Below are positions 35,354 to 63,237 of a stretch of DNA of 64,000 bases, one piece after another. Position 1 is the stretch's first letter; the number at the start of each line of letters is the position of its first letter. Made by a program: the position numbers and the translations under genes. The notes beneath the pieces are model-generated. The model did no database searches and was not told the DNA's origin. It saw nothing but the letters and a program-made list of their open reading frames with translations. The DNA is from Anaerolineales bacterium. GTDB taxonomy: Bacteria > Chloroflexota > Anaerolineae > Anaerolineales > UBA11579. The stretch covers positions 28,068 through 92,067 of the forward strand of contig JAFGDK010000103.1 of the NCBI GenBank assembly GCA_016932165.1, written 5' to 3'.

Positions 35354-35447
35354 AGTTATCACTTAAGTTATTCAACATTTAGATTTACCATCCATTGTTG
35401 GGCAGTGAAACATGACACACCCCAAACTTAAACTTTGGGGAAATGAA

Positions 35448-35479
35448 ACGCACTGAGGTGATTTTCAGTGCGTTTTTTT
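35448..35479 (+). terminator. rho-independent terminator (ACGCACTGA-ggtgatt-TCAGTGCGT-TTTTTTT)
   Basis: Perfect 9-bp stem plus a T7 run. A second hairpin CCCCAAActtaaaCTTTGGGG lies at 35420-35440 just upstream. Confidence 0.7.
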
Positions 35480-36035: not shown

Positions 36036-36767
36036 ATGGATGAACAAAACCTGATCATTGAGACTTTCGAAGAACTTTCGCCACGCTACGAGCAGGTTGT
36101 TGATACAGAGTTAAGCCTATTTTGGGGATGGCGTTATCAAGACTTCGTGGAGACACTGCTTCGTGAAACTCCGATCACACCAAATGACCGCATCCTGGAT
36201 ATCGCCACCGGGACTGGCATGATCCCCAGAGCAATATCCCTGAATGGCTGCCCAGATAAACCTTTGCACGGCCTGGACATCACTTTCGGGATGCTCAATC
36301 GTGCCCGAAAGAAATTCAGCCAAGTAAATCCAGACGCCTCTTTCCAGTTGACCTGTGCATCGGCAATGGAAATGCCTTACGCGGCCAGCACGTTCAACCT
36401 GGCGATCTGCGGACTCGCCACCCACCACATGCATGTTCCAAGCCTGTTGTCCGAGATGTACCGAATTCTGGAACCTGAAGGCCGGGTTGCGGTTGCCGAT
36501 GTTGGCAGCTCTCCCCTTTGGAGAATTCCTGGGGTGAAACTCTTGCTCAGGATCGGTGCGCTGATCTTTTTCCTGATTAGAGAAAATTGGGAGCGCGCCT
36601 GGGCAGAAGCGCTGGCCGTTTCCAATATCCGCACCGGCGAGGAGTGGGCAGCCCTCCTTGCCGAGGCTGGCTTTACCATGATTTCAATTCAACGGCTGCA
36701 GTCAAAACACAGGTGGATCCCAGATCCATTGATCATGCATGCCCAAAAACCAGGGAGTGAGAAATGA
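36036..36767 (+). CDS. class I SAM-dependent methyltransferase (UbiE/COQ5-type, methyltransf_11-like)
   Basis: ILDIATGTGMIP motif I. LDITFGML and MYRILEPEGRVAVAD post-I/II motifs. Confidence 0.75.
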   Translation: MDEQNLIIETFEELSPRYEQVVDTELSLFWGWRYQDFVETLLRETPITPNDRILDIATGTGMIPRAISLNGCPDKPLHGLDITFGMLNRARKKFSQVNPDASFQLTCASAMEMPYAASTFNLAICGLATHHMHVPSLLSEMYRILEPEGRVAVADVGSSPLWRIPGVKLLLRIGALIFFLIRENWERAWAEALAVSNIRTGEEWAALLAEAGFTMISIQRLQSKHRWIPDPLIMHAQKPGSEK

Positions 36768-38365
36768 CCGAATCATACAAAATGCTTCGCGAGGGGAGAA
36801 AACAAGAGCTGTGGAACAAACATTGCGGCTATGTCACGCTGAAACCAAAAGATTTTTTGGAAATTCAAACCCGCTTGTTGCAAGAACAGTTAAAACTGAT
36901 TGGGGCATCACAGCTTGGACAGACGATCATAGGGGAACACCCACCGCAAACGGTGGAGGAATTCAGGCAAACAGTTCCCTTCACGACATATTCCGATTAC
37001 GAAGATTTGCTGGCTGAGAGAAATGAGGAAATCCTCCCGGTAAAACCTCATGTCTGGGCGCGCACATCCGGCAGGACCTCTGATAAAGGGCCCAAGTGGG
37101 TTCCCTACCCAAAACTGATGTACGAACGCCTAGGTGATGCTGTTGTCGGGGCCATGTTGATGGCCTCCTGTTCCTTTCCCGGAGATGTGCGGCTGGAACG
37201 CAACGATAAATTACTGCTTGCCACCGCACCCCCGCCCTATACTTCAGGCTACATCAGCCGCGCCTGCGAAGAGCAGTTGGAGGTCCAATTCCTGCCGCCA
37301 ATTGAGGAGGGCGAGAAGATGGACTACGGCACCCGGTTGGCGGCCGGCTTCCAACTGGCTATGCGCCATGGCCTGGACTACTTCATGGGGCTGGCCAGCG
37401 TGCTTGCCCGGATGGGCGAGCAGTTTGAATCAACCTCAGGCAGCACGACCAAACCCTCAAAGGACCTCCTCAACCCGCGCGTGCTGTGGCGTTTACTACG
37501 CGCCCTGATTATCACCAAAATTCAGAACCGCAATTTACTGCCAAAAGATATCTGGAAATTAAAAGGGATCATGTCGGGTGGAACGGATACAAACATATAT
37601 CGGGACAAGATTGAATATTATTGGGGCTTCAAACCACTTGAAGGGTATGCCACCACCGAATTCGGCAACCTGGCAATGCAGTCCTGGAATTTTAGGGGGA
37701 TGACATTTTTCCCGGATGCCGCTTTCTTCGAATTTATTCCTATAGAGGAGCACCGGAGGAACAAGGAAGAACCCAACTATATTCCAAGGACAGTCCTTTA
37801 CACTGACCTGGAACCAGGGATCTATGAAATTGTGCTGACCAGCTTCCATGGCGGCGTATTCCTACGTTACAGGATCGGTGACTTTTTTGAAGTCATATCA
37901 ATCGGAGACGATGAAATTAACTCCTCACTGCCTCAGCTCTCCTTTTACTCCCGGGTTACTGATATCATCGATATCGGCAATATTGCCCGTTTCACCGAGA
38001 GGGATATCTGGAAAGCGCTGGAGAATGCAAACCTGCCATACACAGATTGGATTGTTCGCAAAGAACACCTGAATGCACATCCCCAACTGCATATCTACAT
38101 CGAACCCAAGGCAGATGCAGCGATCGATTCAGTTGAAGCTAAACAGAAAATCGACAACCACCTTGGCAATCTGGTTGCTGAATATGAAGACCTAAAAACC
38201 ATGTTTGACTACGACCCGTTGGTGGTCAGCCTGCTGCCTGAGGGAGCTTTCCAGACCTATATGGCGGCGCAGGTGGCAGCTGGTGCTGATCTTGCACACA
38301 TTAAACCGCCGCATATGCAGCCCTCAGATCAAGTCATGTCGAGACTGAAAGAAGTCAAGGATTGA
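36764..38365 (+). CDS. GH3-family (auxin-responsive GH3-like) adenylate-forming acyl-acid amido synthetase homologue
   Basis: ARTSGRTSDKGPKWVPYP resembles the GH3 ATP/AMP motif (S-S-G-T-S-x-G-x-x-K-x-x-P). GYATTEFGNL is also present. ~530 aa. ATGA overlap with the methyltransferase stop. The alternative is another ANL-superfamily ligase. Confidence 0.45.
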   Translation: MTESYKMLREGRKQELWNKHCGYVTLKPKDFLEIQTRLLQEQLKLIGASQLGQTIIGEHPPQTVEEFRQTVPFTTYSDYEDLLAERNEEILPVKPHVWARTSGRTSDKGPKWVPYPKLMYERLGDAVVGAMLMASCSFPGDVRLERNDKLLLATAPPPYTSGYISRACEEQLEVQFLPPIEEGEKMDYGTRLAAGFQLAMRHGLDYFMGLASVLARMGEQFESTSGSTTKPSKDLLNPRVLWRLLRALIITKIQNRNLLPKDIWKLKGIMSGGTDTNIYRDKIEYYWGFKPLEGYATTEFGNLAMQSWNFRGMTFFPDAAFFEFIPIEEHRRNKEEPNYIPRTVLYTDLEPGIYEIVLTSFHGGVFLRYRIGDFFEVISIGDDEINSSLPQLSFYSRVTDIIDIGNIARFTERDIWKALENANLPYTDWIVRKEHLNAHPQLHIYIEPKADAAIDSVEAKQKIDNHLGNLVAEYEDLKTMFDYDPLVVSLLPEGAFQTYMAAQVAAGADLAHIKPPHMQPSDQVMSRLKEVKD

Positions 38366-38371
38366 TCTACA

Positions 38372-40318
38372 TTGATTAGCTGGTCGATAACAACCATCAT
38401 TCCACTCATTGCGTCGATAATCTATGGGGGATTATTCGTCATCGTCCTGCTGTCTGTTCCGCTAAACCGCCAGCGGCGGATTTTTGTTGTCTACCTGTTC
38501 TCAATGCTGATCTGGTCGACCAGTGCCTTTATGACTGTCTCTGGCCTTGTGAGTGTGCTGCCCTGGTTCAGGATCATGAGCACCGCTCCTATCCTGATGA
38601 TGATCGCGATCTTTTTCTTTGTCCAGGAGATCTTTGCCAAAAAGCGCACCTGGACCACATGGATCGTTTTGTATGCGATGATTACAACGGTTCTCTTCCT
38701 GGGCACCAATCTTGTGATCAAATCTGCCTCATTAGCGGAAGATTCAACCCTGGTATATGAATTTTCTAATTGGGTCTATCTGATTGCCGGCATCGGCTAT
38801 GCCCTGATCGTAATCAGCCAGATCGAACTCATCCAAGGTCTAAAGGAAACAGATAACCCCCTCCAGCGGACCCGCCTGCAATACCTGGTTATCGGCCTGT
38901 CAATCACCATCCTGGCCTCACTGGTAAATTTTACCCCGCTTGGCGTTTACCCCATTGATATCGCTGCCAACGGGATCACTGCAATTCTGATCGCTTACTC
39001 AATCACGCGCTATCAACTGCTTGAGATCCGAGTGGTACTCCGGGCCGGTTTGCTTTATACCATAATGACCACCCTGCTGGGCGCTATGTATTACCTGATC
39101 ATCTATTTCTCTATTTACCAATTTAATCTATTGTCGGGCCAATCGGTGCTCTCGATCTCGATCTTGATCGCCTTGCTGACCTCACTGACGCTGACACCAC
39201 TCAGAAACAGGTTCCAGAGCGTTATTGACCGGGTGTTTTATCGTCAGCGTTATAATGCCGGCTTGATGCTGGAAAGGCTTAGCGAAGCCACAGCATCCAT
39301 GCTGCACCTTGATCAGATCACCTCGGTGATTTTGGATGAGGTCACCGAGACGCTTTTCACCAATCACGCCGCCATCTATGTGAAAAAGAACTCCCCGGGT
39401 AATTACAAATTAATTGCAAGACACAATCTCAATCCAAAGGCACCTGCTGTATTGCGCAGCGACCACCCGATCATCCGGCAGCTCTCAAGCAGCCCGAACA
39501 TTATCACCCGCTTCGATCTATACAACCTGCCCACCTACCGGGGAATTTGGGCTGAAGAGCGAGAAGACCTGGAAATTCTACAAATGGACCTTTTTATCCC
39601 GCTGCAGGCCAAAGGAGAACTGGTTGGGATTCTAGGAATCGGGCCTAAACTTTCCAGGCAGGAATACTCCCAGGAAGACCAGCGAACCCTGACCACCCTG
39701 GGCAACCAGATGGCAGTAGCAGTAGAGAACGCCCGACTTTATGAGGAACTGGAAAAAACCTTTGTAGAAACGGTGGTCGCCCTGGCAAACGCCATCGACC
39801 TGAGGGACACATACACCAGCAACCACAGCCAGCAGATAGCGACGATGGCACGGGAAGTTGCCCGGCAACTCGAGCTTTCTGCCCAGGAAATTGAGGCGGT
39901 GTATTGGGGCGGGCTGCTGCATGATATCGGCAAGATCGGGATCCCCGATTCAATCCTGCAGAAACCGGCCAAACTCGATGAGAGTGAATGGAATCTAATC
40001 AAGACTCACCCTAAACTGGGTGCTGACCTGGTCGCAAAGATCCATAAACTTGAGCATATAGCTCCCTTAATAGAATTCAGCCATGAACGATTCGACGGTA
40101 CCGGATATCCCCACGGTGTAAAGGGGGATGAGATTCCCATCGGCGCACGGATTGTTGGTGTGGTGGATTCATTTTCCGCCATGATCGACGAACGCCCGTA
40201 TAAACCTCCTCTCAATGAAGAGGCAGCCCTTGAGGAAATAGAAAGGAATGCCGGCGTACTTTACGATCCCAAAGTGGTACAGGCGTTTTTCAGAGTATAC
40301 AATTCCACCAGCATTTAA
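38372..40318 (+). CDS. membrane sensor with an N-terminal multi-TM domain, a GAF-like domain and a C-terminal HD-GYP c-di-GMP phosphodiesterase
   Basis: Roughly 7-8 TM helices in the first 290 aa. HDIGKIGIPDSIL (HD motif) and FDGTGYPHG (GYP motif). TTG start as in the ORF track. Confidence 0.8.
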   Translation: MISWSITTIIPLIASIIYGGLFVIVLLSVPLNRQRRIFVVYLFSMLIWSTSAFMTVSGLVSVLPWFRIMSTAPILMMIAIFFFVQEIFAKKRTWTTWIVLYAMITTVLFLGTNLVIKSASLAEDSTLVYEFSNWVYLIAGIGYALIVISQIELIQGLKETDNPLQRTRLQYLVIGLSITILASLVNFTPLGVYPIDIAANGITAILIAYSITRYQLLEIRVVLRAGLLYTIMTTLLGAMYYLIIYFSIYQFNLLSGQSVLSISILIALLTSLTLTPLRNRFQSVIDRVFYRQRYNAGLMLERLSEATASMLHLDQITSVILDEVTETLFTNHAAIYVKKNSPGNYKLIARHNLNPKAPAVLRSDHPIIRQLSSSPNIITRFDLYNLPTYRGIWAEEREDLEILQMDLFIPLQAKGELVGILGIGPKLSRQEYSQEDQRTLTTLGNQMAVAVENARLYEELEKTFVETVVALANAIDLRDTYTSNHSQQIATMAREVARQLELSAQEIEAVYWGGLLHDIGKIGIPDSILQKPAKLDESEWNLIKTHPKLGADLVAKIHKLEHIAPLIEFSHERFDGTGYPHGVKGDEIPIGARIVGVVDSFSAMIDERPYKPPLNEEAALEEIERNAGVLYDPKVVQAFFRVYNSTSI

Positions 40319-47452: not shown

Positions 47453-47824
47453 TCAGCCTTCCGGCTGTCGGACTAATTCATTCTGCTTTAAGATCAACAG
47501 CAGAAACAAAACAACATCCACCAGCACTGTGGCATAGTCCAACAAGCCCGCCTGGTCAGTGAAGGTGGCAATCATATTGATCACCAGCAGTACCAGGGCA
47601 AACAAATATCCCCAGATGGTGCGTTTGCCAAGCCACCAGGCAGCCAATCCCATCAAGACAGCATTCCCCAGCACCATCAGGGCGATCAGCAGTAAGGCGG
47701 TAGAATCTGCCCCACTATCCAGCCATACCAGACTGAACAACCCAATGACCAGCCAGATAACCATATTGAGCAGGAAAAGCCCCTGCGCTATTCTGACAAC
47801 CCTGTTTCTGGTATCTTCAGCCAT
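47453..47824 (-). CDS. small hypothetical membrane protein (3-4 TM)
   Basis: 123-aa hydrophobic protein with no recognisable motif. Confidence 0.4.
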   Translation of the reverse strand: MAEDTRNRVVRIAQGLFLLNMVIWLVIGLFSLVWLDSGADSTALLLIALMVLGNAVLMGLAAWWLGKRTIWGYLFALVLLVINMIATFTDQAGLLDYATVLVDVVLFLLLILKQNELVRQPEG

Positions 47825-48050: not shown

Positions 48051-50432
48051 TTATGGCACCCAGCCTTCCGCGTAATTACTGTTTATTCTCGCTGAGTTTC
48101 TATTCACACACAGCAGATCGATATCCCAGAACTCCTCATCACCATGGGTGCGGAAATTGGTATAAACATGCCAGTTATTATTCTTTATGTAAGGGTATGC
48201 CTCAAGGATATCTCCGGTATCATTCTCATTGATGTCGCCGTACAGGGCTTCCATTCCAACTATCCCGCAGGCCCACTGGGAAGCGTTCATCCCCGTGTCA
48301 CGGCTGACCCCGCCGCGGATCATTTCCAATCGGACTAACCTGAACACATTCGGATCATTGTGGACGCAAAGCACATCTACATCCCAGACCTCCGCATGAT
48401 CCCCATGGGTGTTGAAATTTGCGGTCAGTTCCCACTCGCCATCACTGTTTTTAGATGTAAATGCCTTAATAATATGTTGCCCTTGCCCATCTTCATTGAT
48501 ATTCCCATTCCAGGCACCAATCCCCACCACACCGCACAGCCGGTTATCGGGTATTCCGAGGCCGCTCAGACTGACTGTGTCGCTCCCATTTGGTTCTACC
48601 CGCACCCGCCGGTAGATATTGTACCCATCGGCATCTGCCTTGCGCATGCACATCACGGAGAAGTACCAGGTCTCTGAATTTTTGTGTGTCTTGAAATCAG
48701 CGTTCAGATACCAGGTATTGCCTTCAGGGAGCAGATTGGCATAGATGATATTGCCAAACCCGCCTTCCTCGATATCTCCATGCAAGGCAGCCATGCCAAC
48801 GATGCCGCACTCATGTTGCTCTGATGAAATTCCAGTATTCAGATGAACCGGCGGGTTTAAACCCGCGAAGGTAGTGAAGACAACCGAATTTGGTGGGAAA
48901 TCGGGTGTGGCTATCAGAAACATTGGAGCCATCTCCAAGATTAACGGGGAAAGAGGGATATACACCAAAGGCTGGTCAACGACAACCTCTCTGCTTGCCA
49001 AAGAAAAGCCCAGATCATTCTCCACCTTCAGACTGACTGAATAAGTTCCGGCAGTCTCGAAAGCATGATCTGCATCCTTGGTAAATACCGGCAAGCCTTC
49101 TCCGAAATTCCACGTCCAACGCAAGGGGTCACCCGAAGACGTATCCACAAAGGAAACTTCAAGAGGAGCATCTCCGGTTTCAGGCAGCATCACAAAGCTG
49201 GCTTCCGGCAGCGGGCCCGGGATCGAGACCACGGGGACAGGGATTGCATTCCGCGTGACAGAACTGGCCGGCACCCAAGCTTCTGTCCCATCATAATCAA
49301 TCTGGAACCAGCTGCCGTCCCCGTTCTGACCAAGCACCTCATACTGGGCGCCATTCTCCGCGCCGCCAATCACGTGATAGTTTGTTCCCGGCCCTTTGAG
49401 CACATCCACCGCAGGGGTATTGATCGTCAGCATGGCCACTGGCACTGCGGTCGGGATGATCTCTTGCCCGGGGAAGACCACGGAAAGCGCATTGGTGATC
49501 TCTGCACCAGGCCAGTGGAATACCACCCTGGACCGTTCGGGGACAGTGGAAAAATCAATTCCCTGCAAGTTCAGCTGTATCTGGTAGGGGCTGGTCAGGA
49601 AGGGGTACAGTGCGGCTGTTTCAACCTGGTTGCCGGCTTCATCCACGATATAGGCGGTGGGCAAATTGGCCTGCTCATAGTTGTAGCCGCTGATCTTGAT
49701 CACCGCGTCGGTGAAGACAATCACCTCTCCCACCTCTTCCAGGTTGACCTGATCGGGGATGATCTGGCAAACCCAGGGTACAGGAACGTCATCATCCGGG
49801 CTTTCACCTGATATGATCTCCCGCAATTGTCCCACCAGGGTGCGGCCGATAAACTCGTCCACCGTCTCCCCGGCACGCGCCCCGAGAAAATCCACGTTGC
49901 AGCGGAACTCGATGCCAACTGTGGCTACCACCTGTTGAGAATTTACCCTGGCATCTTCCATCAGCGCGCTGACCTCATCAGCGATATCCGAAGCTACATT
50001 GGAGGTCGAAGTCTCCAACACCTGGATGATCTCGGTCATTGTATCTTCCCACTGGCCAGGCATATCTTCGATCGTATCGATCAGGCTGTTGACGGTGGCA
50101 TTCGTCTCCGGGTCTAGCCCCAGCTTGATCCCCACACCTTCCTCAATGATACCCAGCAATGCGTCCACCCGGTCGAGAGTATTCTGCTTAAATCCAAACT
50201 CTAAACCTTCAGCAATGGTATCGTTGAGTTCCTCGATCATCGCCCGGGTTTCAGGGCCGATCTCTACCCCTCGGTCCAGCATCTCGTTGATGTCGTCAAT
50301 CCGGCTGAGGGTATCTGGACCCAACTCTGATGTGGTTTCGATCTCAAAATGGCTTGGCACAAGGTTGCAGGCTGTGGTTATTGCCAGGATCAACAGAATG
50401 GTGACAACTCGGAAAAAGATTTTCTCTCGCAT
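48051..50432 (-). CDS. large secreted lipoprotein with a PKD domain and three tandem ~85-aa Cys-containing repeats of unknown family
   Basis: Start taken at the internal Met (MREKIFFRVVTILLILAITTAC, lipobox). PKD-like segment PLEVSFVDTSSGDPLRWTWNFGEG. Three C-terminal repeats share the pattern CG[IV]VG[MI].A..G[DN]I.E.G.G.I......W.....F.TH......D...[MLC]C. Confidence 0.6.
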   Translation of the reverse strand: MREKIFFRVVTILLILAITTACNLVPSHFEIETTSELGPDTLSRIDDINEMLDRGVEIGPETRAMIEELNDTIAEGLEFGFKQNTLDRVDALLGIIEEGVGIKLGLDPETNATVNSLIDTIEDMPGQWEDTMTEIIQVLETSTSNVASDIADEVSALMEDARVNSQQVVATVGIEFRCNVDFLGARAGETVDEFIGRTLVGQLREIISGESPDDDVPVPWVCQIIPDQVNLEEVGEVIVFTDAVIKISGYNYEQANLPTAYIVDEAGNQVETAALYPFLTSPYQIQLNLQGIDFSTVPERSRVVFHWPGAEITNALSVVFPGQEIIPTAVPVAMLTINTPAVDVLKGPGTNYHVIGGAENGAQYEVLGQNGDGSWFQIDYDGTEAWVPASSVTRNAIPVPVVSIPGPLPEASFVMLPETGDAPLEVSFVDTSSGDPLRWTWNFGEGLPVFTKDADHAFETAGTYSVSLKVENDLGFSLASREVVVDQPLVYIPLSPLILEMAPMFLIATPDFPPNSVVFTTFAGLNPPVHLNTGISSEQHECGIVGMAALHGDIEEGGFGNIIYANLLPEGNTWYLNADFKTHKNSETWYFSVMCMRKADADGYNIYRRVRVEPNGSDTVSLSGLGIPDNRLCGVVGIGAWNGNINEDGQGQHIIKAFTSKNSDGEWELTANFNTHGDHAEVWDVDVLCVHNDPNVFRLVRLEMIRGGVSRDTGMNASQWACGIVGMEALYGDINENDTGDILEAYPYIKNNNWHVYTNFRTHGDEEFWDIDLLCVNRNSARINSNYAEGWVP

Positions 50433-50638
50433 CGGTGATTTCTCCCTTATCCCCAGAAAGGAACTTTGTGGTAATGATAATTGTGGTGTCTTTTTCACAT
50501 CATACACCAAATTTTGGTTGATTCTATAGTTCTGGAGTCAGGAATTGACATAAAACGGTGTGATAGCACTTACCCAGGTTAAAAAAATAGGGACAGGTTC
50601 CAACCTGCCCCTACACCTGTAAACCAGCATGGATTGCC

Positions 50639-52495
50639 TCACCCAGCCAATTTGGCCCTGATCCAATCCTCGATTGCAGCTTCCAGGGTCTCCAGCGGCA
50701 TACTGCCGTTATTCAGGATTACCGAATGGAACTCGCTGAGCACAAAATCATTCCCCAGGGATTCCTCGGCCTTCTCTCGCATTGCCATGATCTCGATCTT
50801 GCCCACCAAGTAGGCTGTGGACTGTGCCGGGTAGGCAATATAGCGCATGATCTGGTTTTCGGAAAAACCGCGAGAGAATCCTGAATTTTCCACCATATAA
50901 TCGACCGACTGGCTGAAATCCCATCCCATCATGTGGATGCCGGTATCCACCACCATGCGCACCGCCCGCAGGGCTTCGTACTGCAAGCGCCCCAGGTCAC
51001 CGTAGGGGTCATCGTCATACCACCCCAGGTCATAAGCCAGGTACTCAGCGTACAGCGCCCAGCCTTCCACAAAACCGGTGAAGTTCATCAAATTCCTAAA
51101 AAGCGGCAGGTCCGCCATCGCTGCCAGGGTGATCTGGTAATGATGACCGGGAATACCCTCATGATATGCCAGCGAGCGCATCTTATACACCGCTTCCGGT
51201 GCAGTAATCAGGGCATAAAATTTTCCAGGGCGGGAGCCATCCATCGAGCCGGGAGAATAAAACGCGCCTGCATTCCCACCAACGACCTCCAGCGCCCCTG
51301 CAGGGCGGGTCTCGAAATATGAAGGTACAAGCTGGTCAGCTTCTGCCAGAATGCGCTCATACTCAGTTGTGATCGCATCACCGGTTAGATAACCAGAGTC
51401 ATCTGCAAGCCGCTGGTAGAGCTGTTCAATACTCTCATTCTCCGGGTAGCCCAGGGCGACAAACCTCTCCCGCATTTCTTTCTGAATGCGCTCAACCTCT
51501 GCCAGTCCCCGCGCATGGATCTCCTCAGCGGTCATCTCAGTGGTGGTAAAATGACGCAGCTGCCGCTGGTAATACTCCGCGCCGCCATCGTAAGCCGAGA
51601 TCCCCAGAACATCAGGCGCCTGAGACTGAAGCGCAGCCAGCTTCTCATCCAGCCGATCAAAGGCAGGAAAGACTTCCTCCTCCAATGCTTGAATCAACTC
51701 CTCTTCCAACTTTGAATAGGTATTATCATCGAGCACAGATGGGGCCTTTTGCGAAAAGGCATACTTGAGCGGGGACGCAAGAGCGCTTCTGCCTAGCCAT
51801 TGTTTGAGATCCGAGCGGCCATATTCCAGTACAATGCGCGGCGGGATCACCCCGGCATCTTCCTGCACCTCAATCTGGGCGATCAACTGATCAATCTTTT
51901 CATCCAGCAGGTGGATCCGAGCCACATACCCCTCGGCATCTTGGGTGGAATTGAATGGATGTGAATCAGTAAAAAATATCAAATACAGCTGCGGGGCGCT
52001 ACGCACACTCATCGGGCTGACAAGGTATTTAAATTTGGCATCCTGATACAACTGGATGGCGTCTTCCAGATACCACTCAAATACCTGATAAGAAATTTGG
52101 TCCTCCGGTGTGAGAGATGCAAAATCATATTCCCGCAACAGATTCAATAATTCCCGGTTGATCTGGTCATCCACAGCCAGCGCTTGCGGGCTGACATCCG
52201 TCAATACCGGCTCCGAAGGACCGATCCCCTTCAGACCCAACTCCAGCACCAATTCCGGATCGCGCTCCAGGATGAGGTAAAATGCCTGCTGGTAAAAATC
52301 CCCAATGCTCAGCCCGGCCAGATGAGCAGTTAGTTCTCCGGCAACAGAGATCTGTTCTTCACTATCCTGACTGGATTGGTTATAATTTTCCCCCGGCACC
52401 TCTTCACTGTTAGGAGCAGGCGCACCGACCAGCTGACTGCTGCAACCAGCAAGCAAACCGAACAGGATCAGGATAAAAAGTGATTTCTTCAGCAT
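50639..52495 (-). CDS. DUF885-family lipoprotein (putative metallopeptidase-like)
   Basis: Lipobox LLAGCSS. Conserved HEGIPGHHYQ motif characteristic of DUF885. ~600 aa. Confidence 0.5.
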   Translation of the reverse strand: MLKKSLFILILFGLLAGCSSQLVGAPAPNSEEVPGENYNQSSQDSEEQISVAGELTAHLAGLSIGDFYQQAFYLILERDPELVLELGLKGIGPSEPVLTDVSPQALAVDDQINRELLNLLREYDFASLTPEDQISYQVFEWYLEDAIQLYQDAKFKYLVSPMSVRSAPQLYLIFFTDSHPFNSTQDAEGYVARIHLLDEKIDQLIAQIEVQEDAGVIPPRIVLEYGRSDLKQWLGRSALASPLKYAFSQKAPSVLDDNTYSKLEEELIQALEEEVFPAFDRLDEKLAALQSQAPDVLGISAYDGGAEYYQRQLRHFTTTEMTAEEIHARGLAEVERIQKEMRERFVALGYPENESIEQLYQRLADDSGYLTGDAITTEYERILAEADQLVPSYFETRPAGALEVVGGNAGAFYSPGSMDGSRPGKFYALITAPEAVYKMRSLAYHEGIPGHHYQITLAAMADLPLFRNLMNFTGFVEGWALYAEYLAYDLGWYDDDPYGDLGRLQYEALRAVRMVVDTGIHMMGWDFSQSVDYMVENSGFSRGFSENQIMRYIAYPAQSTAYLVGKIEIMAMREKAEESLGNDFVLSEFHSVILNNGSMPLETLEAAIEDWIRAKLAG

Positions 52496-52871: not shown

Positions 52872-55298
52872 TTATCGCTTCCGTGATCGGATCAATTCTC
52901 GCAAACCCTTGAAGAACCGCCCGTTCAACATCTCCAGCACAGATACCAACATTCCCCGGCTGATTTTATCCCCGCCAGCCATTAAAATCCCACGCAGGGG
53001 CATTTCCGCCATCATCGCTTCCATCAGTAAGGTTGTGGGGGAATCCTGATCATCGCCCATTTCTTTTTTACCAAGACTGCTGATCAGATTGAATAAGACC
53101 CGTCCGATAAACGAATCCTTCATATCTTTCAACGGGGTGTTCATCGTGAATTCACCCTTCCTGGGAAGTTGATTCACTGGCAGCGGCCGACCCAACAGGG
53201 CTTGAAACGCCTCCTGGCTAACCGGCGCTCCTTTGGGGAAGTTGTAATACACAGACAGATTATCTTTGTCCACATCTGGCGCTTCTGGTTGGGAAGATAC
53301 TACTTCCACTTCGCCTTTGAGGCGCAGATCCCTTGAAGATGCGCCTATCAGGATTTCGAAGCTACCCGATTCTACATGCCAGCGGTCCAATTCGGTGTTG
53401 TAAAAAGCAAACGCTCGTTGGCTTAGTTCAATGGAAATCTGTTTTTCCTCCCCTGGCTCCAGGCTGAGCTTGGCAAATCCCTTGAGTTCCTTTTCGGGGC
53501 GGAAGACGGTCGATTCTACATCCCGCACATACACCTGCACCACTTCCTTCCCGGCCAACCCGCCGGTGTTCTTCACCTTTAGACTGACGGTCAGATTTTC
53601 TGTGTCCGAGATCTGCGGACTGCTCAAAACCAGGTCACGGTATTCAAAAGTGGTATAACTCAGCCCATGCCCAAACGGGAAGAGCACTTCCTCGTTTACA
53701 CTATCAAAATAGCGGTAGCCCACATAGATGCTCTCGCGGTATTCTACGGTGGCGGGCCCCATAGGGAAGTATGGGTGTGAGGGGTTATCTTCCAGGTGAA
53801 TGGGAAAGGTTTCCGCCAATTTGCCGCAGGGGGTGACCCGGCCAGTTAAAATATCGGCCAGCGCACCCGCCCCGGCCTGCCCGCCGAGATAGCCTTCCAG
53901 GATAGCTGGCACATCGTCGACCCAGGGCATCTCCACCGGCGCCCCGTTGCTCAGCACTACCACCACTTTCTCAAATTCGGCTGCCAGCCTTTCGATCAAA
54001 GCATCGTGCCCCGGCGGCATCTTCATGTGTGTGCGGTCCAGCCCTTCGGTCTCATACAGATCGGTCAGTCCAGCGCAGACCAGGACCACATCCGCATCTC
54101 TGGCTGTATACACCGCCTCGGAAATTAAAATTTCGTCCGGGTAATCCGCCCTTTTGGTGTATCCCGGCGCATAGCTGACCTGCTCCTCGCCGACCAGCTT
54201 GACCAGTTCAGCGTAGAAATTATCCAGCCGGGACGGGTTCATCAGCGAGCTGCCCGCCCCCTGATAGCGTGGCTCTTTGGCAAACCGCCCGATCACGGCA
54301 ATCCTGATTCCCCCCTTCAGAGGCAGTAAGCCACCCTCATTTTTCAGCAGCACCGCCCCTTCCGCAGCCACGATACGAGCAAGCCGGTGATGTGTCTGGG
54401 CATCATAGACATAATCTTCTGACAGCGTCTTTTGTGCCTTGAAGATCATCGCAAGAATGCGTTCTACGGCTGCATCCAGCACGGATTCATCCAGAATCCC
54501 AGACTTCACCGCATCAACGATCAATTCATCGTTGCCGTTGTTTGCCCCGGGCATCTCCAGTTCCACCCCGGCTTTCAACGCCGGCACGCGTTCGTTCATC
54601 GCCCCCCAATCGGAGACCACCAGGCCCTCATGGCCCCATTCCTCCTTGAGGATCTCAGCCATCAAATGGGGGTGCTCGCAGCAGTAGGTGCCGTTCACGC
54701 GGTTGTAAGCGCCCATCACCGTCCACGGCTGGGCTTCTTTCACCGCGATCTCAAATCCCGCCAGGTAGATCTCCCGCAGGGCGCGCTCATCGACCAGTGC
54801 ATCGATCGACATGCGGCGGGTTTCCTGGTTGTTGACCGCATAATGCTTCAAAGATGTCCCCACCCCCTGGCTCTGCACCCCGTTGATATAACTCTTGGCC
54901 ATCTCTCCGCTCAGGTAGGGATCCTCAGAGAAATATTCAAAGTTACGACCGCATAAGGGCGATCGTTTGATGTTCGCCCCTGGTCCAAGGATCACCGACA
55001 CCTTCTCCTGGCGGCATTCCTCTCCCAGGGCTGCACCCACCTGATAGAGCAGGTCTCGATTCCAGGTTGCTGCCAAAGCTGATGCTGTCGGGAAACAAGT
55101 GGCAGGCAAGCTCTCGTTAAGGCCAATATGATCAGCCTGATCCAGTTCTTTACGCAGACCGTGCGGCCCATCGGCAACCATCACCCGAGGAATACCCAGC
55201 CGGTCAATCCCTTTCAACTCCCAGAAATTCTTACCAGAACAAAGTGAGGCTTTCTCCTCAACTGTCATCTGTGAAATAAGTCCTTTGATATCCCTCAT
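52872..55298 (-). CDS. glycoside hydrolase family 3 beta-glucosidase (BglX-like) with a C-terminal FnIII-like domain
   Basis: DGPHGLR, KHYAVNNQE and GLVVSDWGA (the SDW nucleophile region). 808 aa. Confidence 0.85.
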   Translation of the reverse strand: MRDIKGLISQMTVEEKASLCSGKNFWELKGIDRLGIPRVMVADGPHGLRKELDQADHIGLNESLPATCFPTASALAATWNRDLLYQVGAALGEECRQEKVSVILGPGANIKRSPLCGRNFEYFSEDPYLSGEMAKSYINGVQSQGVGTSLKHYAVNNQETRRMSIDALVDERALREIYLAGFEIAVKEAQPWTVMGAYNRVNGTYCCEHPHLMAEILKEEWGHEGLVVSDWGAMNERVPALKAGVELEMPGANNGNDELIVDAVKSGILDESVLDAAVERILAMIFKAQKTLSEDYVYDAQTHHRLARIVAAEGAVLLKNEGGLLPLKGGIRIAVIGRFAKEPRYQGAGSSLMNPSRLDNFYAELVKLVGEEQVSYAPGYTKRADYPDEILISEAVYTARDADVVLVCAGLTDLYETEGLDRTHMKMPPGHDALIERLAAEFEKVVVVLSNGAPVEMPWVDDVPAILEGYLGGQAGAGALADILTGRVTPCGKLAETFPIHLEDNPSHPYFPMGPATVEYRESIYVGYRYFDSVNEEVLFPFGHGLSYTTFEYRDLVLSSPQISDTENLTVSLKVKNTGGLAGKEVVQVYVRDVESTVFRPEKELKGFAKLSLEPGEEKQISIELSQRAFAFYNTELDRWHVESGSFEILIGASSRDLRLKGEVEVVSSQPEAPDVDKDNLSVYYNFPKGAPVSQEAFQALLGRPLPVNQLPRKGEFTMNTPLKDMKDSFIGRVLFNLISSLGKKEMGDDQDSPTTLLMEAMMAEMPLRGILMAGGDKISRGMLVSVLEMLNGRFFKGLRELIRSRKR

Positions 55299-56385: not shown

Positions 56386-56864
56386 CATTAATCTGATTCT
56401 TTCCTGCCCGATTACATTTAGAACTTAATTCCCATCGTCAGAATGATCACTTACATGGATCTGGTAATATCATCAAGAAATTGTGAAACAACGATTGGAT
56501 AAACAAACATGGCAGATGATATTTATCTGCAGCCCTGCATTATAGCTGGGTTAATGTTTCCAGATGAATTGCTCACTATAATGGGGTCATGGCTTTCTCA
56601 AAGAAAGGAATTGTCGGCGATGATAAAAAACTCCCTAACCCCCTGCCCCCTTCCCCAGCAACTGTGTTGATGAGTGAGCGGTTGCAAGTTTGCCGGGGAA
56701 GGGGAAGGTAAGCGTGAGGATGATATCTGATACACTTGGTGGATGTGGGTTCTGAAACCAGATGAATTTCTCGATAGTTGTCAAGCGACTTTGCGAATGC
56801 CATAATAACAGGGTAACATCTTTATCTACAATCAGGCGAAATGATCAAATATAAAGGATTTCCT

Positions 56865-58133
56865 ATGAAAAATCGGCTCTCTGTAATCCTCTTATTGATA
56901 TTGACACTTACAGCCTGTATCCCTACTAACAAGAACCCAGAAAATGGTGCCAACCCGCCACCAGACAAATCACCAACCAATCCAATCAAAACTCAGCCGT
57001 TTGGTACACAAGACACATCCCCTGCCGCCCAGCCAACAAATATGGGCGATAGCCTTGAAGTTTCCTGGGTCAAATCCTTCACCGGGCCGGACTATGGCGC
57101 TTTCTTTGATCTGATCCGGGCAGAGGACGACAACCTGATTGTCGTCGGGGCCACAAACCACCGCCATATGCCGCCATATTCAGGCGACTCGCTGATCCTC
57201 AAACTCTCACCTGCAGGAGAAATCATCTGGGAAAAGACCTGGGGCGGAGAGGGATATGAGCAAGCATGGGAAATTTCTCCGGCAGAGGATGGCGGCTATC
57301 TGATCTTTGGCGAGACAGATTCCTACGGCGCCGGTGACCGGGATTTCTTCCTGCTGAAAACAGATCAGGAGGGCATTCAAGAATCGTTTCGCACTTACGG
57401 CGGATCCCTTCGCGAGTGGCCCTTCGGGATGCTGTCTCTCTCTAACGGAGATCTGCTGCTCTATGGTCTCACAGAATTAGATGATGGAACCGGCAGGAAC
57501 GAATATGCTGTCAGAGTGGGAAATTCTGGCGATGTGATCTGGGAGCATATTGGTGAGGGCTTGGGAGAAGAGCTTGTATTGGATGCCCTTGAGATCAGGG
57601 AAAACGAGATCATTCTGGTTGTCAGTGCAGATGAAGACGCCAAACTGGTCACCCTGGACAAAGATGGACATTTGCTGCGGGAAAACCTATTTGAGATCCC
57701 CGGATGGCAGTACTTTTCAACAATTGCACCAATCGACGGGGGAGATTTAATTCTAGCTGGATTCTGGATGAAGGACGGACCACCGCGCCAGGCAGATACC
57801 TGGCTGATGCGCTGCACTTCAGATGCAAAAGTGATCTGGGAGAAGACGCTTGGAGATCCGAAAAATGATGATTATGCCCAGTCGCTGATCCGCCTGGCGG
57901 ATGGCAACTTCCTGATCGGGGGATTGGGAGAAGGGATGCCTCTGACGCTTGTAGATGAGCATGGGGGAATCCTCTGGCAGCAATCGCTGTTGGGATCAGG
58001 TGTTTATCTCGCTGATGCCCTGCTTGAACAGGAAGCGGGATTTCTGGCAGCCGGGTTTGTCCAACTGATTAACGGGCAGTCCTACGATGCTATTTTGGTT
58101 CAGATGAATTTGGAAGAGAAGTTGGGAGAGTAA
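56865..58133 (+). CDS. lipoprotein with SBBP-type beta-propeller repeats
   Basis: Lipobox LTLTAC. Repeated units of the form G.T.S.G.GD.D..L.K.D..G...W..T.GG (SBBP-like). Confidence 0.55.
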   Translation: MKNRLSVILLLILTLTACIPTNKNPENGANPPPDKSPTNPIKTQPFGTQDTSPAAQPTNMGDSLEVSWVKSFTGPDYGAFFDLIRAEDDNLIVVGATNHRHMPPYSGDSLILKLSPAGEIIWEKTWGGEGYEQAWEISPAEDGGYLIFGETDSYGAGDRDFFLLKTDQEGIQESFRTYGGSLREWPFGMLSLSNGDLLLYGLTELDDGTGRNEYAVRVGNSGDVIWEHIGEGLGEELVLDALEIRENEIILVVSADEDAKLVTLDKDGHLLRENLFEIPGWQYFSTIAPIDGGDLILAGFWMKDGPPRQADTWLMRCTSDAKVIWEKTLGDPKNDDYAQSLIRLADGNFLIGGLGEGMPLTLVDEHGGILWQQSLLGSGVYLADALLEQEAGFLAAGFVQLINGQSYDAILVQMNLEEKLGE

Positions 58134-58224: not shown

Positions 58225-58521
58225 GAACATAAAAGCCAACATCATCCGTCACAGGGTGCCTGCTTTCTAAAACCCATTACCTTCTGATCCCATTCGTACA
58301 AGCACCTCATTCTGATCCACAAGCTTGTCTGCGGGGATCAGATTATCCGCCAACGCTTCGCCATTCAGGGTAACCGATGCAACTCCTTTGCATATACCTT
58401 CCGGATTCTGCACCTCAATATGTACCCACTTGCCCCGGAATCGGCGCACCGCCTTGAATCCCTTCCAATCCGAGGGGATGCACGGGTCAATCCGCAAGCC
58501 GTCAATCTCAGGCCGGATACC
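58225..58521. repeat. ~297-bp near-identical tract (about 95% identity by eye) shared with 60724-61020, covering the 3' ends and 3' UTRs of the two GH94 genes
   Basis: Direct comparison of the two regions shows only ~15 mismatches over ~297 nt, whereas the rest of the genes is diverged. Confidence 0.8.
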
Positions 58522-60672
58522 GAGGATGTACTGGGTAGCTGAATAATACGCCCAGGAAGCCGCACCGGTCAACCAGGAGGTACGAGCATTCCCCGCCCGC
58601 GGCGAGAAAGTTGAATAAGTCGTTTGGGCCTGCACGTAAGGCTCGCTCTGTCGCACCTCTGCCCGGTGGTTGTAGGCTGCCGGCATACTCGCCCGGAAGT
58701 ATTTATAAGCCCGGTCGCCGTTTCCGGTGATGCACTCTGCCATCACCCCCCAGCCCTGGGTATGGTTGAAGATCCCAGCATTCTCCTTGATCCCAGTGAG
58801 ATAGACCACAGAGCGCATCACATCCACCGGGGTCGTGACGAAAGGCGGCGCAGCCAGCATCAACCCATACGGAGTGAAGAGTTCATCTTCCACCACCTGC
58901 AGGCATTTTTCAGCCTGTTCCGCCGTAGCCGCCCCGCTGAGTACTGCCCAAACCTGGGTATTCAAGTAGATCTGGCCCTCTTCATACTCTCTTGTGCCGT
59001 AAACCGTGCCGTCGTCTCCAATCGCCCAGATGAACCACTCCCCGTCCCAGGCAATCCGCTGGATAGCCGCGTCCAGCAAATCGCGTTGGGCTTCTGCCCA
59101 GGCTTTCTCCACCGGCTTATCCAGCCTCTCAGCAATCCCGGCATACTCGGTCAGCCCCAGGCGAAGCTGGAAGGCCACAAACAGGCTTTCACCATAATAC
59201 CCCAGCCGCAAACAGTCATTCCAATCGGCCGAGAGGCCGCAGGGCAGACTGTGGGCGCCCATCCGTTCCAGGTTGAACTCCAGCGCCCGGCGCAGATGTC
59301 CAAAAACGGTATCCTGGCCCTGATCGGCATACGGCAGCACCTTGTTGTAGAAATCAACATCGCCGGTTTCTCCTACCAATGCTGGCACCGCGTTAAAGAA
59401 CCATAAGCAGTCATCCGAGCGGTATTCTTCCAACATAGGCGGTGATTCTTTACCTGGGGTGTGTTCAAAAGGCCTGATCACCGGAATCGCCCCGCCGTTG
59501 GCCAGCTGCCCGGTGAACATCAATTCCAGGCGCGCTTGCGCTTCTTCCGGAATAGCCGCTGCCACCCCCAGAATATCCTGCACTGAATCCCGGAAACCGA
59601 GCCCGTCTCGCTCGCCGTTGTACACCAGGCTGGCTGCCCGTGACCAGGCAAACGTGATCAGACAGTTATACACCCCCCACACATTCACGGTGTGATCGAA
59701 ATCCTCATCCGGCGTCTCCACCGACAGGCTCTCTAGTTTGGAATGCCAGTAATTTTTCAACCTGTGAAATTCTTGCTCTGCCCTTACCAGCGAACCAAAC
59801 TCAGCCATCTTCAACCTGCCAACCGTTCGGGCCTCGCCGACTCCCAACATCACCAGCAGCTGGCGGGATTCTCCGGGCTGAAGTTCTACATCAGCCTGCA
59901 ACGTGCCGCAGGCATTATCCCCATATGCCTCGCTGTTGGTGCACCGGCCTTTTACCACCACCTGCGGGTTGTGATAGCTGCCGTAGATGCCCAAGAAAGC
60001 TTCCCGGCTGATGTCATACCCGATCAGGTCAGCCCCTACCAGACCCATCCAGGTTTTCATCACACTATCACCCGGGTCATCCTCGTTAGAGGAGAGATGG
60101 TCGTGGATACCTATCCGGATGAGGTTATCCTCCATCTTACCGCGCACAATGAACAGCGAATACTGTAAGTTGACCCGGTCCTGGAATGTGATCCACTGAT
60201 TGGTGAACTCGCAGAACGAGAATATCGAAAGCTTACGCCTCACGTCGCTGGTATTGGTAACCTTCAAACGCCAATATTCAAAGGACTCCCCAAGTGGAAC
60301 AAAGTAAGTGCTTTCAGTTTCGATCCCGGCAAAGCGGCTCTCGATGATTGTGTAGGCGGTGCCATGCCGACAAACCGACTGATATTCCTCCAATGGCTTG
60401 CCCACCGGCTGCCACGAAGCAGACCAATAATCTCCCGATTCCTGATCGCGCAGGTAGAAGTACCTGCCCGGCTGGTCCATCGGGATACTGTTGAAATTCA
60501 ACCGCAGGAACCGACCGCGCGCCCCTGATTTATAAAACCCGTATCCGCCAGCGTTGTTCGTGATCACTGCGCCATACTCGGTGGAACCCAGATAATTGCT
60601 CCATGAAGCCGGGGTATCAGGCTGGGTGATCACATATTCCTTAGCCTGGTCATCAAAGTGTCCGTATTGCAT
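58267..60672 (-). CDS. GH94 glycoside phosphorylase (cellobiose/cellodextrin phosphorylase family), copy 1
   Basis: MQYGHFDDQAKEYVITQPDTPASWSNYLGS N-terminus is typical of cellobiose phosphorylase. ~800 aa. Start at the Met preceded by GAGGAG. Confidence 0.75.
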   Translation of the reverse strand: MQYGHFDDQAKEYVITQPDTPASWSNYLGSTEYGAVITNNAGGYGFYKSGARGRFLRLNFNSIPMDQPGRYFYLRDQESGDYWSASWQPVGKPLEEYQSVCRHGTAYTIIESRFAGIETESTYFVPLGESFEYWRLKVTNTSDVRRKLSIFSFCEFTNQWITFQDRVNLQYSLFIVRGKMEDNLIRIGIHDHLSSNEDDPGDSVMKTWMGLVGADLIGYDISREAFLGIYGSYHNPQVVVKGRCTNSEAYGDNACGTLQADVELQPGESRQLLVMLGVGEARTVGRLKMAEFGSLVRAEQEFHRLKNYWHSKLESLSVETPDEDFDHTVNVWGVYNCLITFAWSRAASLVYNGERDGLGFRDSVQDILGVAAAIPEEAQARLELMFTGQLANGGAIPVIRPFEHTPGKESPPMLEEYRSDDCLWFFNAVPALVGETGDVDFYNKVLPYADQGQDTVFGHLRRALEFNLERMGAHSLPCGLSADWNDCLRLGYYGESLFVAFQLRLGLTEYAGIAERLDKPVEKAWAEAQRDLLDAAIQRIAWDGEWFIWAIGDDGTVYGTREYEEGQIYLNTQVWAVLSGAATAEQAEKCLQVVEDELFTPYGLMLAAPPFVTTPVDVMRSVVYLTGIKENAGIFNHTQGWGVMAECITGNGDRAYKYFRASMPAAYNHRAEVRQSEPYVQAQTTYSTFSPRAGNARTSWLTGAASWAYYSATQYILGIRPEIDGLRIDPCIPSDWKGFKAVRRFRGKWVHIEVQNPEGICKGVASVTLNGEALADNLIPADKLVDQNEVLVRMGSEGNGF

Positions 60673-60723
60673 TCTCGACTCCTCAAGGTGGGGGAATAAT
60701 AATCTACCCCAATTGCTGAATGT

Positions 60724-61020
60724 GAACATAAAAGCCAGCATCATCTGTCACGATGTGCCTGCTTTCTAAGATCCATTACCCTCCGATCCCATTCGTACAA
60801 GCACCTCATTCTCATCCACAAGCTTGTCTGCGGGAATCAGATTATCCGCCAACGTTTCGCCATTCAGGGTAACCGATGCAACTCCTTTGCACGCACCTTC
60901 CGGATTCTGCACCTCAATGCGCACCTGCTTGCCCCGGAATCGGCGCACCGCCTTGAATCCCTTCCAATCCGAGGGGATGCACGGGTCAATCCGCAAGCCG
61001 TCCACCTCCGGCCGAATACC
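60724..61020. repeat. second copy of the near-identical GH94 3' tract
   Basis: See the 58225-58521 repeat entry. Confidence 0.8.
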
Positions 61021-63237
61021 CAATATCCATTGCGTGATCGCCACATAGTTCCAGGCAGCTGTCCCGGTCAGCCAGGAATTTTTGGCCTCACCATGTGTAG
61101 GCGCATCGCTGCCGGCGATCATTTGAGCGTAGACATACGGCTCACACTTGTGCACCTCACTGATCTCTTCACGATTTGATGGATTGATCCGGCGGTAATA
61201 ATCAAATGCCATCTCCGCCCGGCCAGCCACCGCTTCAGCGATCATGATCCACGGGTTGGTATGGCAAAAGATACCGGCATTCTCTTTATACCCCGGCGGA
61301 TATGACGAGATTTCCCCATATTCCAGGTAATACCGGGTATATGCCGGCTGGTGCAGCACAATCCCGTGCGGCGTGGACAGATACTTTGAAACTGAATTCA
61401 AGGCCTTTTCAGCCCTGCCGTTCTCCAGCCCCAACCCTGCCATGATGCAGATACCCTGCGGCTCAATGAAAATCTTGCCTTCTTCACACACTTTGGCCCC
61501 AATCGGTTTACCAAAATCATCGTATGCCCGACGGAACCATTCGCCGTCCCAACCAGCCGACCAGACCGACGCTTCGATTTCATCTATCGCCGAAGACAGC
61601 TTATTGATCTGGTGTTCATCACCCACATGGCGGGCGATCTGAAGCATCTCCTTGCTTGCCAGCACAAACAGCCCGGCAATGAAGACGCTCTCGGCCACCT
61701 TGCCGTCCTTGCTGGTCACCGTCTGGAACGATTGTCCTGGCTCAGAAGAAAAACAATTCAGGTTGAGACAGTCATTCCAATCCGCCCGGCCGATCAGGGG
61801 CAGGCCGTTTGGCCCGCGGCGGTCAATTGTATATAACAAAGCCCTTTGCAAATGATCATAGAGCGGCTGCTCGCTGCCGGGTTGGTTATCATACGGCACC
61901 GGCTCATCCAGGATTGACCAATCCCCGGTCTCCTTGAGATAAGCCGACACGGCTAAAACCAGCCACAGCGGGTCATCATTGAAATTACCGCCCACATCAT
62001 GGTTGCCGCGCTTGGTCAGCGGCTGGTATTGGTGATAGGCACCGCCGCTTTCCAGTTGGGTGGCCGCCAGATCAAGAATTCGCTCCCTCGCCCGTTCAGG
62101 GACCATCTGCACGAACCCCAACAAATCCTGGTTGGAATCCCGAAAACCCATCCCCCGCCCGATCCCGGACTCAAAATATGAGGCCGAGCGCGACATATTG
62201 AAAGTCACCATCGTCTGGTAGGCATTCCAGATATTGACCATCCGGTTGGTGTGTATATCAGGCGTTTTCACCTGGAAGATATCCAGCAGCTCCGTCCAGT
62301 TAGTCCTAAGCTCATGGAAAGCCGCTTGTACTGCCTCTGTTTGACAATATTTCTCAATCACCGGCAGTACGGTGCGCTTGTTGATCGTATTGCTGTTGGG
62401 CGGATCAAATTTCTGATCTCTGGGGTTCTCATGATAGCCTAAAAGGAAGATGATCTCTCTAGCTTCCCCCGGCGCAAGTTCAACCTTGATCTGCTGGACA
62501 CCCACTGGCTGCCAGCCGTGAGCGATTGATCCTCTCAATTTGCCTTTTTCCACACCCAGGGGCGCGTCCCAGCCCTGGTATGCACCCAGGAACGCCTCCC
62601 GCTGGGTATCAAAACCGATTACCGGTGTAGAGCAGGCCAGGAAGGCAAAATGGTCCCGCCGCTCACGGTATTCAGTCTTGTGGTAGATAACCCCATCCAG
62701 CACTTCCACCTCGCCGATTGAATAATTGCGCTGGAAGTTGGTAGCGTCATCCATCGCATCCCAAAGGTTGAACTCAACCGCCGAGAACACTGAAAGCAAC
62801 GCTGGTTCTGCCCGCTGATTGGTCAGCGCCAGCTGCCAGATTTCTAGGTTCTCACCCAGAGGGACAAAATAGCGGATTTGTGCCTCGATCTTCTTGTGGG
62901 CGGATTTTATTGTTGTGTACCCCAACCCGTGGCGGCATTCATAATCATCCAGTTGGGAACGCGTCGGCTGCCACGTTGGCGACCAGAAATCCCCCCCTTG
63001 GCTTCGATCGTCTCGGAGATAGATATACCGCCCGCTGCTGTCCAGCGGCGCATTGTTATAGCGGTAGCGGGTCAGGCGGCGCAGTCTGGCATCTTTATAA
63101 AACGAATACCCACCTGCGGTGTTTGAGATCAACCCAAAATAGGATTCAGAACCAAGATAGTTAATCCAGGGCAGTGGGGTATCCGGGCGTTTGATCACAT
63201 ACTCACGGTTCTTGTCGTCAAAATATCCAAATTTCAT
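60766..63237 (-). CDS. GH94 glycoside phosphorylase (cellobiose/cellodextrin/chitobiose phosphorylase family), copy 2
   Basis: MKFGYFDDKNREYVIKRPDTPLPWINYLGS N-terminus. ~50% identical to copy 1 except for a near-identical C-terminal tract. Confidence 0.75.
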   Translation of the reverse strand: MKFGYFDDKNREYVIKRPDTPLPWINYLGSESYFGLISNTAGGYSFYKDARLRRLTRYRYNNAPLDSSGRYIYLRDDRSQGGDFWSPTWQPTRSQLDDYECRHGLGYTTIKSAHKKIEAQIRYFVPLGENLEIWQLALTNQRAEPALLSVFSAVEFNLWDAMDDATNFQRNYSIGEVEVLDGVIYHKTEYRERRDHFAFLACSTPVIGFDTQREAFLGAYQGWDAPLGVEKGKLRGSIAHGWQPVGVQQIKVELAPGEAREIIFLLGYHENPRDQKFDPPNSNTINKRTVLPVIEKYCQTEAVQAAFHELRTNWTELLDIFQVKTPDIHTNRMVNIWNAYQTMVTFNMSRSASYFESGIGRGMGFRDSNQDLLGFVQMVPERARERILDLAATQLESGGAYHQYQPLTKRGNHDVGGNFNDDPLWLVLAVSAYLKETGDWSILDEPVPYDNQPGSEQPLYDHLQRALLYTIDRRGPNGLPLIGRADWNDCLNLNCFSSEPGQSFQTVTSKDGKVAESVFIAGLFVLASKEMLQIARHVGDEHQINKLSSAIDEIEASVWSAGWDGEWFRRAYDDFGKPIGAKVCEEGKIFIEPQGICIMAGLGLENGRAEKALNSVSKYLSTPHGIVLHQPAYTRYYLEYGEISSYPPGYKENAGIFCHTNPWIMIAEAVAGRAEMAFDYYRRINPSNREEISEVHKCEPYVYAQMIAGSDAPTHGEAKNSWLTGTAAWNYVAITQWILGIRPEVDGLRIDPCIPSDWKGFKAVRRFRGKQVRIEVQNPEGACKGVASVTLNGETLADNLIPADKLVDENEVLVRMGSEGNGS

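Follow-up and report, generated by a model that had tools for sequence, protein, structure and literature searches.

Three tandem repeats of an Anaerolineales surface protein are predicted to form a single-chain counterpart of a homotrimeric fibre-tip domain

Tail fibres of the P2 and R-pyocin type are homotrimers. Salazar et al. described a single 'discoidin-like lectin' foot fold in which sugar is bound via a network of distal loops; the pyocin foot binds a divalent cation in these loops through Asp, Glu and His (PMC6363177). Members of this fold class include the R1 and R2 pyocin feet, AP22 gp54 and the C-termini of LKA1 gp49 and of the phi297 tailspike, together with discoidin I and II, Helix pomatia agglutinin and SLL-2. 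A comparable assembly principle is found in the C-terminal domain of PCSK9, a eukaryotic protein-binding domain. It consists of three tandem six-strand modules, tightly packed and with structural homology to the resistin homotrimer, and each module bears six Cys joined by disulfides C1-C6, C2-C5 and C3-C4 (PMC9113161). Here, a gene on the minus strand of a 64,000-nucleotide stretch of DNA from an Anaerolineales bacterium (contig JAFGDK010000103.1, positions 28,068 to 92,067; hereafter the window) is shown to encode a protein ending in three tandem repeats. These repeats represent a new, hitherto unnamed domain family, of which the fold class and the assembly principle are both already known. 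On balance, the favoured reading is that the three repeats form a single-chain pseudo-trimer of a homotrimeric fibre-tip domain, likely a head for ligand recognition.

The 793-residue product is identical to the deposited protein MBN2045694.1 (P0006 in the family set), annotated as 'SH3 domain-containing protein' in an Anaerolineales metagenome-assembled genome (MAG). The mechanical open reading frame (ORF) spans 48051..50510 on the minus strand from a TTG start, and the start at 50432 (MREKIFF...) chosen in a preliminary description of the locus yields the 793 amino acids (aa). The features of the gene, in window coordinates, are as follows.

48051..50432, minus strand: whole gene, 793 aa plus stop codon (ORF list, translation and identical database protein)
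50367..50432, minus strand: putative lipoprotein signal peptide up to Cys22, MREKIFFRVVTILLILAITTAC (sequence inspection)
49428..50366, minus strand: N-terminal module of unnamed type, aa 23-335, with an acidic helical stretch ahead of a beta-rich part
49257..49409, minus strand: SH3_3 domain, aa 342-392 (PF08239, E 1.6e-11, 44.7 bits against a cut-off of 27)
48978..49178, minus strand: PKD domain, aa 419-485 (PF18911, PKD_4, 48.2 bits against a cut-off of 27; PF00801, 44.1 bits)
48624..48887, minus strand: repeat 1, aa 516-603, Cys542 and Cys595 (family profile 107 bits, BLASTP, triplet model)
48345..48623, minus strand: repeat 2, aa 604-696, Cys633 and Cys689 (family profile 87 bits, BLASTP, triplet model)
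48084..48347, minus strand: repeat 3, aa 696-783, Cys722 and Cys775 (family profile 121 bits, unit and triplet models)

The three repeats are real, as first described: they share pairwise identities of 34-47% with BLASTP E values of 1e-11, 6e-14 and 4e-19, and the three motif starts quoted at the time are located at aa 540, 632 and 720. A family profile run against the six-frame translation of the window finds exactly these three and none elsewhere. The repeat length was underestimated at about 85 aa. The period is about 90 aa, because two strands precede the first Cys of a unit, and the fold unit starts some 25 residues before that Cys. Modelled alone with A1, an alignment of 15 units from the window protein and five relatives, one unit is predicted as a six-strand beta-sandwich with a predicted local distance difference test score (pLDDT) of 85.5 and a predicted template-modelling score (pTM) of 0.76, in keeping with the earlier expectation that each unit folds by itself. 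Confidence in this model is lowest at the conserved G-D-I-x-E-x-D-x-G-D loop (pLDDT 62-74). The model of the whole triplet (aa 513-793), computed with an alignment of 23 triplets (A2), reaches pLDDT 92.3 and pTM 0.91, and the same loops score 85-96. Since pTM is 0.91 for three domains, the model fixes their mutual arrangement. The C-terminal 280 residues would then be three copies of a beta-sandwich domain of about 88 aa, predicted to pack round a pseudo-threefold axis into one compact head, the single-chain equivalent of a homotrimer. It is quite probable that the three repeats form one such body.

Structural comparison points to the same kind of assembly. The matches to the triplet are trimers of beta-sandwiches in one chain, and the unit fold is tentatively placed, at weak Z, in the class of H-type lectins and tail-fibre feet. 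The fold thus appears to have precedents, a point on which the preliminary description needs amending. The sequence family itself is unnamed, as had been proposed: A1 with its 15 units yields no Pfam family, none of the units matches PF09458 even at E<=10, and searches of PDB sequences with unit and triplet profiles give no meaningful match. A match to SP140 at E 1.4 was dismissed. In Pfam, the last 300 residues yield a marginal match to NERD (PF08378; 48093-48236 on the minus strand, aa 732-779; 23.1 bits against a cut-off of 22.1), to which NCBIfam adds nothing. This match spans only profile positions 2-47 of 111, around the G-D-I-x-E loop, and was judged to be due to chance; the unit alone scores 19 bits, below the cut-off, and only 3 of the 15 units match at all.

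The repeat consensus recurs widely in other proteins. An exhaustive HMMER search with A1 against 1.84 billion cluster representatives recovers 413 proteins at E<=1e-3, 220 of them at E<=1e-10. A word-indexed search with the 299-aa C-terminal fragment had found only 5 relatives, and one with the unit alignment none; given the 413 clusters of the exhaustive search, this reflects a limit of the index and not rarity. Genome contigs searched with the window fragment gave nothing, and the alignment of single-copy units (A4) located 8 loci. The organisms recorded for the hits are Anaerolineales and other Chloroflexota, Cyanobacteria (Tolypothrix, Crocosphaera, Cyanothece), one gammaproteobacterium, one Bacteroidales bacterium and one Thermoanaerobaculia bacterium; apart from the Tolypothrix record, those hits whose record titles were read derive from MAGs. 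Source names are uninformative ('hypothetical protein', 'PKD repeat protein' or blank).

The family follows a copy-number rule, established by a local re-scan of the best 150 of the 413 members, to which the counts of copies and architectures given here refer. One copy is found in 86 proteins, three in 58 and two in 13, and never more than three, so that 144 of 157 proteins carry either one copy or three. The two-copy cases are mostly fragments of 150-260 aa, and one two-copy protein, P0134, has a gap sized like a degenerate middle copy. P0028 (639 aa) shows a further layout: behind its two units, at 150-237 and 235-321, come two copies of a different repeat, each about 150 aa long. Single copies and triplets belong to two distinct architectures. 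Single copies lie at most 25 aa from the C-terminus in 69 of 75 proteins, and in 41 of 68 long single-copy proteins the domain comes after a stalk with a repeated motif, G-x-V-G-I-G-T, which is present in none of the 58 triplet proteins. Triplets sit in ordinary, non-fibre secreted multidomain proteins with extracellular fusion partners (PKD, Big_7, CARDB, He_PIG, SLH, fn3, Peptidase_M23, Lipase_3, Trypsin_2 and Exo_endo_phos), and the triplet is internal in 26 of the 58. The nearest neighbour of a unit is usually the unit at the same position in another protein (36 of 49 for unit 1, 26 of 48 for unit 2 and 29 of 43 for unit 3). The triplet is therefore an old block that has moved as a whole, not a variable tandem array.

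Two single-copy relatives resemble tail fibres in their gene or domain context. P0091 combines the domain with PF12571, a phage tail-collar fibre N-terminal domain, and also matches phrog_3737. In a gammaproteobacterial MAG (OZ255836.1, chromosome, 4305-11285; locus L004), a protein of 1323 aa begins with PF12571 and ends with the single-copy domain. One tail sheath gene and two tail tube genes come directly downstream of the gene for this protein, in the order known from P2 and the R-pyocins, and no ORF of fibre-chaperone size (>=120 aa) lies between the fibre and sheath genes. In PHROGs, the repeat domain matches nothing; only the N-terminal and stalk parts of the fibre proteins match tail-fibre families. 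In trimeric fibres with one C-terminal copy per chain, three chains would build a head equivalent to that of the window protein.

The conservation of the two Cys differs between the architectures. Every one of the 140 triplet units has both. The 82 single-copy units carry C+C in 21 cases, A+F in 41, C+A in 10, A+Y in 6, V+A in 2, and C+G and V+I in 1 each; a second Cys is seen only where the first is present (Fisher p = 7e-12, uncorrected for phylogeny). On a neighbour-joining tree built without these two columns, each Cys column changes about 6 times. The two residues thus behave as a pair, as the preliminary description had supposed. In the unit model, two residues separate one Cys from the start of strand 3 and the other from the end of strand 6, the register to be expected of antiparallel pairing between these strands. 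One disulfide per unit (542-595, 633-689 and 722-775) would account for every Cys of the protein other than Cys22, Cys178 and Cys222.

The second conserved feature is a set of four polar residues, to which G-D-I-x-E contributes an Asp and a Glu, F-x-T-H a His and E-x-W a further Glu. Their conservation in single-copy units is 96% (Asp), 100% (Glu, E39), 92% (His, H66) and 91% (Glu, E70). The set is relaxed in triplets, most in repeat 1 (73%, 79%, 30% for the His and 85%), and is kept best in repeat 3 (His 76%, Glu of E-x-W 100%). Such relaxation is expected, because three sites that are identical in a homotrimer become free to diverge once fused. None of the three repeats of the window protein has lost the set; repeat 2 has Asn in place of Asp. 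From these conservation patterns, the G-(D/N)-I-x-E loop, the His of F-x-(T/S)-H and the Glu of E-x-W make up a candidate binding or metal site.

In its single-copy form, the domain resembles the R-pyocin and P2 foot: both form the distal, C-terminal end of a trimeric fibre, and the small antiparallel beta-sandwich of the foot is predicted for the repeat domain as well. The relative in L004 likewise ends a tail fibre that adjoins sheath and tube genes. That a C-terminal fibre domain lies in a contractile-tail cluster holds for this relative and not for the window protein, which is unlike the pyocin and P2 foot a non-fibre protein with three copies in one chain. The conserved Asp/Glu/His/Glu set resembles the cation ligands of the pyocin foot when compared by residue type. 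There are further differences: six long strands are predicted here versus eight in the pyocin foot, the repeat domain has a conserved intradomain Cys pair that the foot lacks, and the repeat profiles match no PDB chain, solved foot domains included. With the H-type lectins the repeats share a trimeric assembly, here as a predicted pseudo-trimer. A literature search combining H-type lectins with tail fibres found nothing.

The likeness to PCSK9 lies in the predicted arrangement of three tandem six-strand modules (about 75-90 aa) in one body with a pseudo-threefold axis, and in the existence of a homotrimeric structural counterpart to a single-chain form, as for resistin. PCSK9 modules have three disulfides each, in contrast to the one Cys pair per repeat found here. 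Human PCSK9 452-692, verified as the query sequence, aligns to the repeats with an hhalign probability of 0.07%, and there is no match to Pfam PCSK9_C; this candidate homology was rejected at the sequence level. We know of no PCSK9-type domain on fibres. True homology of the repeat family to the resistin/PCSK9 fold, with an ancient prokaryotic or phage fibre-tip origin, is a highly improbable proposition; if true, the same conversion from trimer to single chain would have occurred in bacteria as in the animal three-module domain. In a more modest version, the repeats could form a new metal-dependent glycan-binding head, and its natural single-chain form could be used as a portable monomeric 'trimeric' receptor-binding module. 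The triplet also matched C1q/TNF heads via the engineered single-chain trimers 5hzf, 4dou and 5kca. These heads are ten-strand jelly rolls of about 130 aa, as opposed to 88 aa and six long strands here, and the natural proteins are three-chain, the matched single-chain forms being engineered. The repeats have no Pfam or sequence match to C1q/TNF, and the likeness is confined to the trimer arrangement.

Other explanations of the triplet can be weighed against these data. The repeats could be three independent tandem binding modules, each folding and binding alone, with multivalent avidity like that of tandem carbohydrate-binding modules. The confident model of the isolated unit fits this view, as does the retention of a separate Cys pair and D/N-E-H-E set in every repeat of the window protein. 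However, independent tandem modules normally vary in number, whereas the count here is nearly always 1 or 3 and never higher; the repeat boundaries (516-603, 604-696, 696-783) abut without linkers in a compact model, and each of the three positions retains its identity from protein to protein, which together make this explanation decidedly unlikely. A purely structural role is conceivable as well, in which the domain is a cap or a trimerisation and folding nucleus without ligand that locks the chains of a fibre and provides a stable knob in triplets. Many phage fibres have their trimerisation nucleus at the very C-terminus, which is where the single copy is found in fibre-like proteins, and in L004 the fibre and sheath genes are too close together to accommodate a chaperone gene. 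A trimerisation device is of no obvious use within one chain, yet the triplet has been kept in 58 different multidomain proteins, at an internal position in 26 of them. Moreover, conservation of the polar residues at 91-100% in single copies suggests a site rather than a core, and the nearest fold class binds sugars via its distal loops (PMC6363177). A cap without ligand is for these reasons considered unlikely.

The placement of the unit in the lectin and foot class invites the further idea that the repeats are very divergent true H-type lectins (PF09458), which would imply binding of N-acetylgalactosamine-type sugars at protomer interfaces. None of the 15 units matches PF09458 even at E<=10, nor does the whole protein; the profiles find no PDB sequence and the fold scores are weak, leaving this view very unlikely. 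Least credible of all is a small metal-dependent enzyme domain, for instance a depolymerase tip with catalytic His and Glu. The near-invariance of E39, H66 and E70 in single-copy units, the fusion of triplets to hydrolases and the occasional presence of enzymes on fibre and tailspike tips speak for it. Against it, hydrolases are usually larger than a beta-sandwich of 88 aa, the structural neighbours of the unit include no enzyme family, the His is lost in 70% of repeat-1 units, and the weak NERD match is partial (47 of 111 profile positions) and does not reach the cut-off with the unit by itself; the probability of an enzyme is close to negligible.

The reading of the triplet as a single-chain pseudo-trimer also faces contrary observations. 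AlphaFold2 can over-pack tandem homologous repeats, because couplings within a domain may be read as contacts between repeats. P0028, and perhaps P0058, are seemingly genuine full-length proteins with two copies. The evidence for a link to phages consists of two fibres with PF12571 and a single tail gene cluster, and is so limited because the domain was found neither in IMG/VR viral contigs, scanned with one single-copy unit and A4, nor in BFVD, where Foldseek with the unit returned nothing below E 0.013 and no significant match.

The N-terminus of the protein, MREKIFFRVVTILLILAITTAC, has an n-region and an h-region followed by Cys22, although the lipobox, ITTAC, is non-canonical. Five homologues (P0004, P0010, P0012, P0020 and P0044) likewise have a Cys after a hydrophobic stretch, and lipidation at Cys22 is plausible despite the atypical lipobox because they keep this residue at the same place. 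The preliminary assignment as a lipoprotein is thereby plausible rather than proven. Both the SH3_3 and PKD domains exceed their Pfam gathering thresholds. The PKD domain had been recognised before, and the SH3_3 domain was overlooked. The N-terminal module, about 310 aa, is shared with P0004, P0012 and P0020, carries the conserved Cys178 (RCNVDF) and Cys222 (PWVCQIIPD), and has no match in Pfam, NCBIfam or PDB sequences.

The gene was originally placed in a glycan-utilisation neighbourhood, and the following genes lie upstream on the same strand.

58267-60744 and 60766-63252, minus strand: two adjacent GH94 phosphorylase genes (cellobiose/cellodextrin-type)
52872-55298, minus strand: GH3 gene
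50639-52495, minus strand: DUF885 lipoprotein gene

Together, these genes constitute a beta-glucan catabolism set. The run is interrupted by two plus-strand genes, and downstream lie a small membrane protein gene and genes of acyl-CoA metabolism. In the one orthologue context compared (locus L010), the gene of P0012, an orthologue with the full architecture, lies between TetR and hydrolase genes on one side and a branched-chain amino-acid ATP-binding cassette transporter on the other, and the beta-glucan set is not adjacent to it. The glycan context is real in the window and is not conserved in this single comparison; it therefore says little about function, for which it is a weakly supported clue. 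Two other ORFs of the region, one of 430 aa at 56841-58133 on the plus strand and one for a predicted membrane protein of 123 aa at 47453-47824 on the minus strand, have no Pfam match at the thresholds used. The G+C content at window positions 26000-40000 is 0.48-0.51, versus 0.53-0.59 in the flanks.

Under the favoured pseudo-trimer reading, the protein would be exported and probably anchored by a lipid at Cys22. The chain would then run from the N-terminal module through SH3_3 and PKD to the pseudo-trimeric head, which, given this order, would lie at the chain end furthest from the anchor. The head would most likely act as a recognition tip, probably for a glycan or a cell-surface ligand, with the conserved acidic and His loops as the candidate site, possibly together with a metal. 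Recognition appears the most likely function on account of the position of the head, its fibre-tip relatives and its fold class; ligand binding rather than a purely structural role is nonetheless about evenly poised. A binding role on a surface protein, as first proposed from the sequence, is still the best guess.

The analysis defines a domain family that comprises about 400 sequence clusters, spanning Chloroflexota, Cyanobacteria, Bacteroidota, Gammaproteobacteria and Acidobacteriota, whose members are now annotated only as 'hypothetical', 'PKD' or 'SH3' proteins. The family thereby provides a link between the tips of proteins resembling tail fibres and secreted multidomain proteins and enzymes of the ordinary kind. 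Protein engineers build single-chain trimers by hand for C1q, adiponectin and TNF ligands, and resistin and PCSK9 provide, to our knowledge, the only well-known natural example of a trimer with a single-chain counterpart. If the pseudo-trimer reading is true, the window protein would be a natural precedent for the conversion of a homotrimeric recognition head into a single chain. Such a single-chain head, of about 31 kDa and directly expressible, could reveal the ligand class of the related fibre tips.

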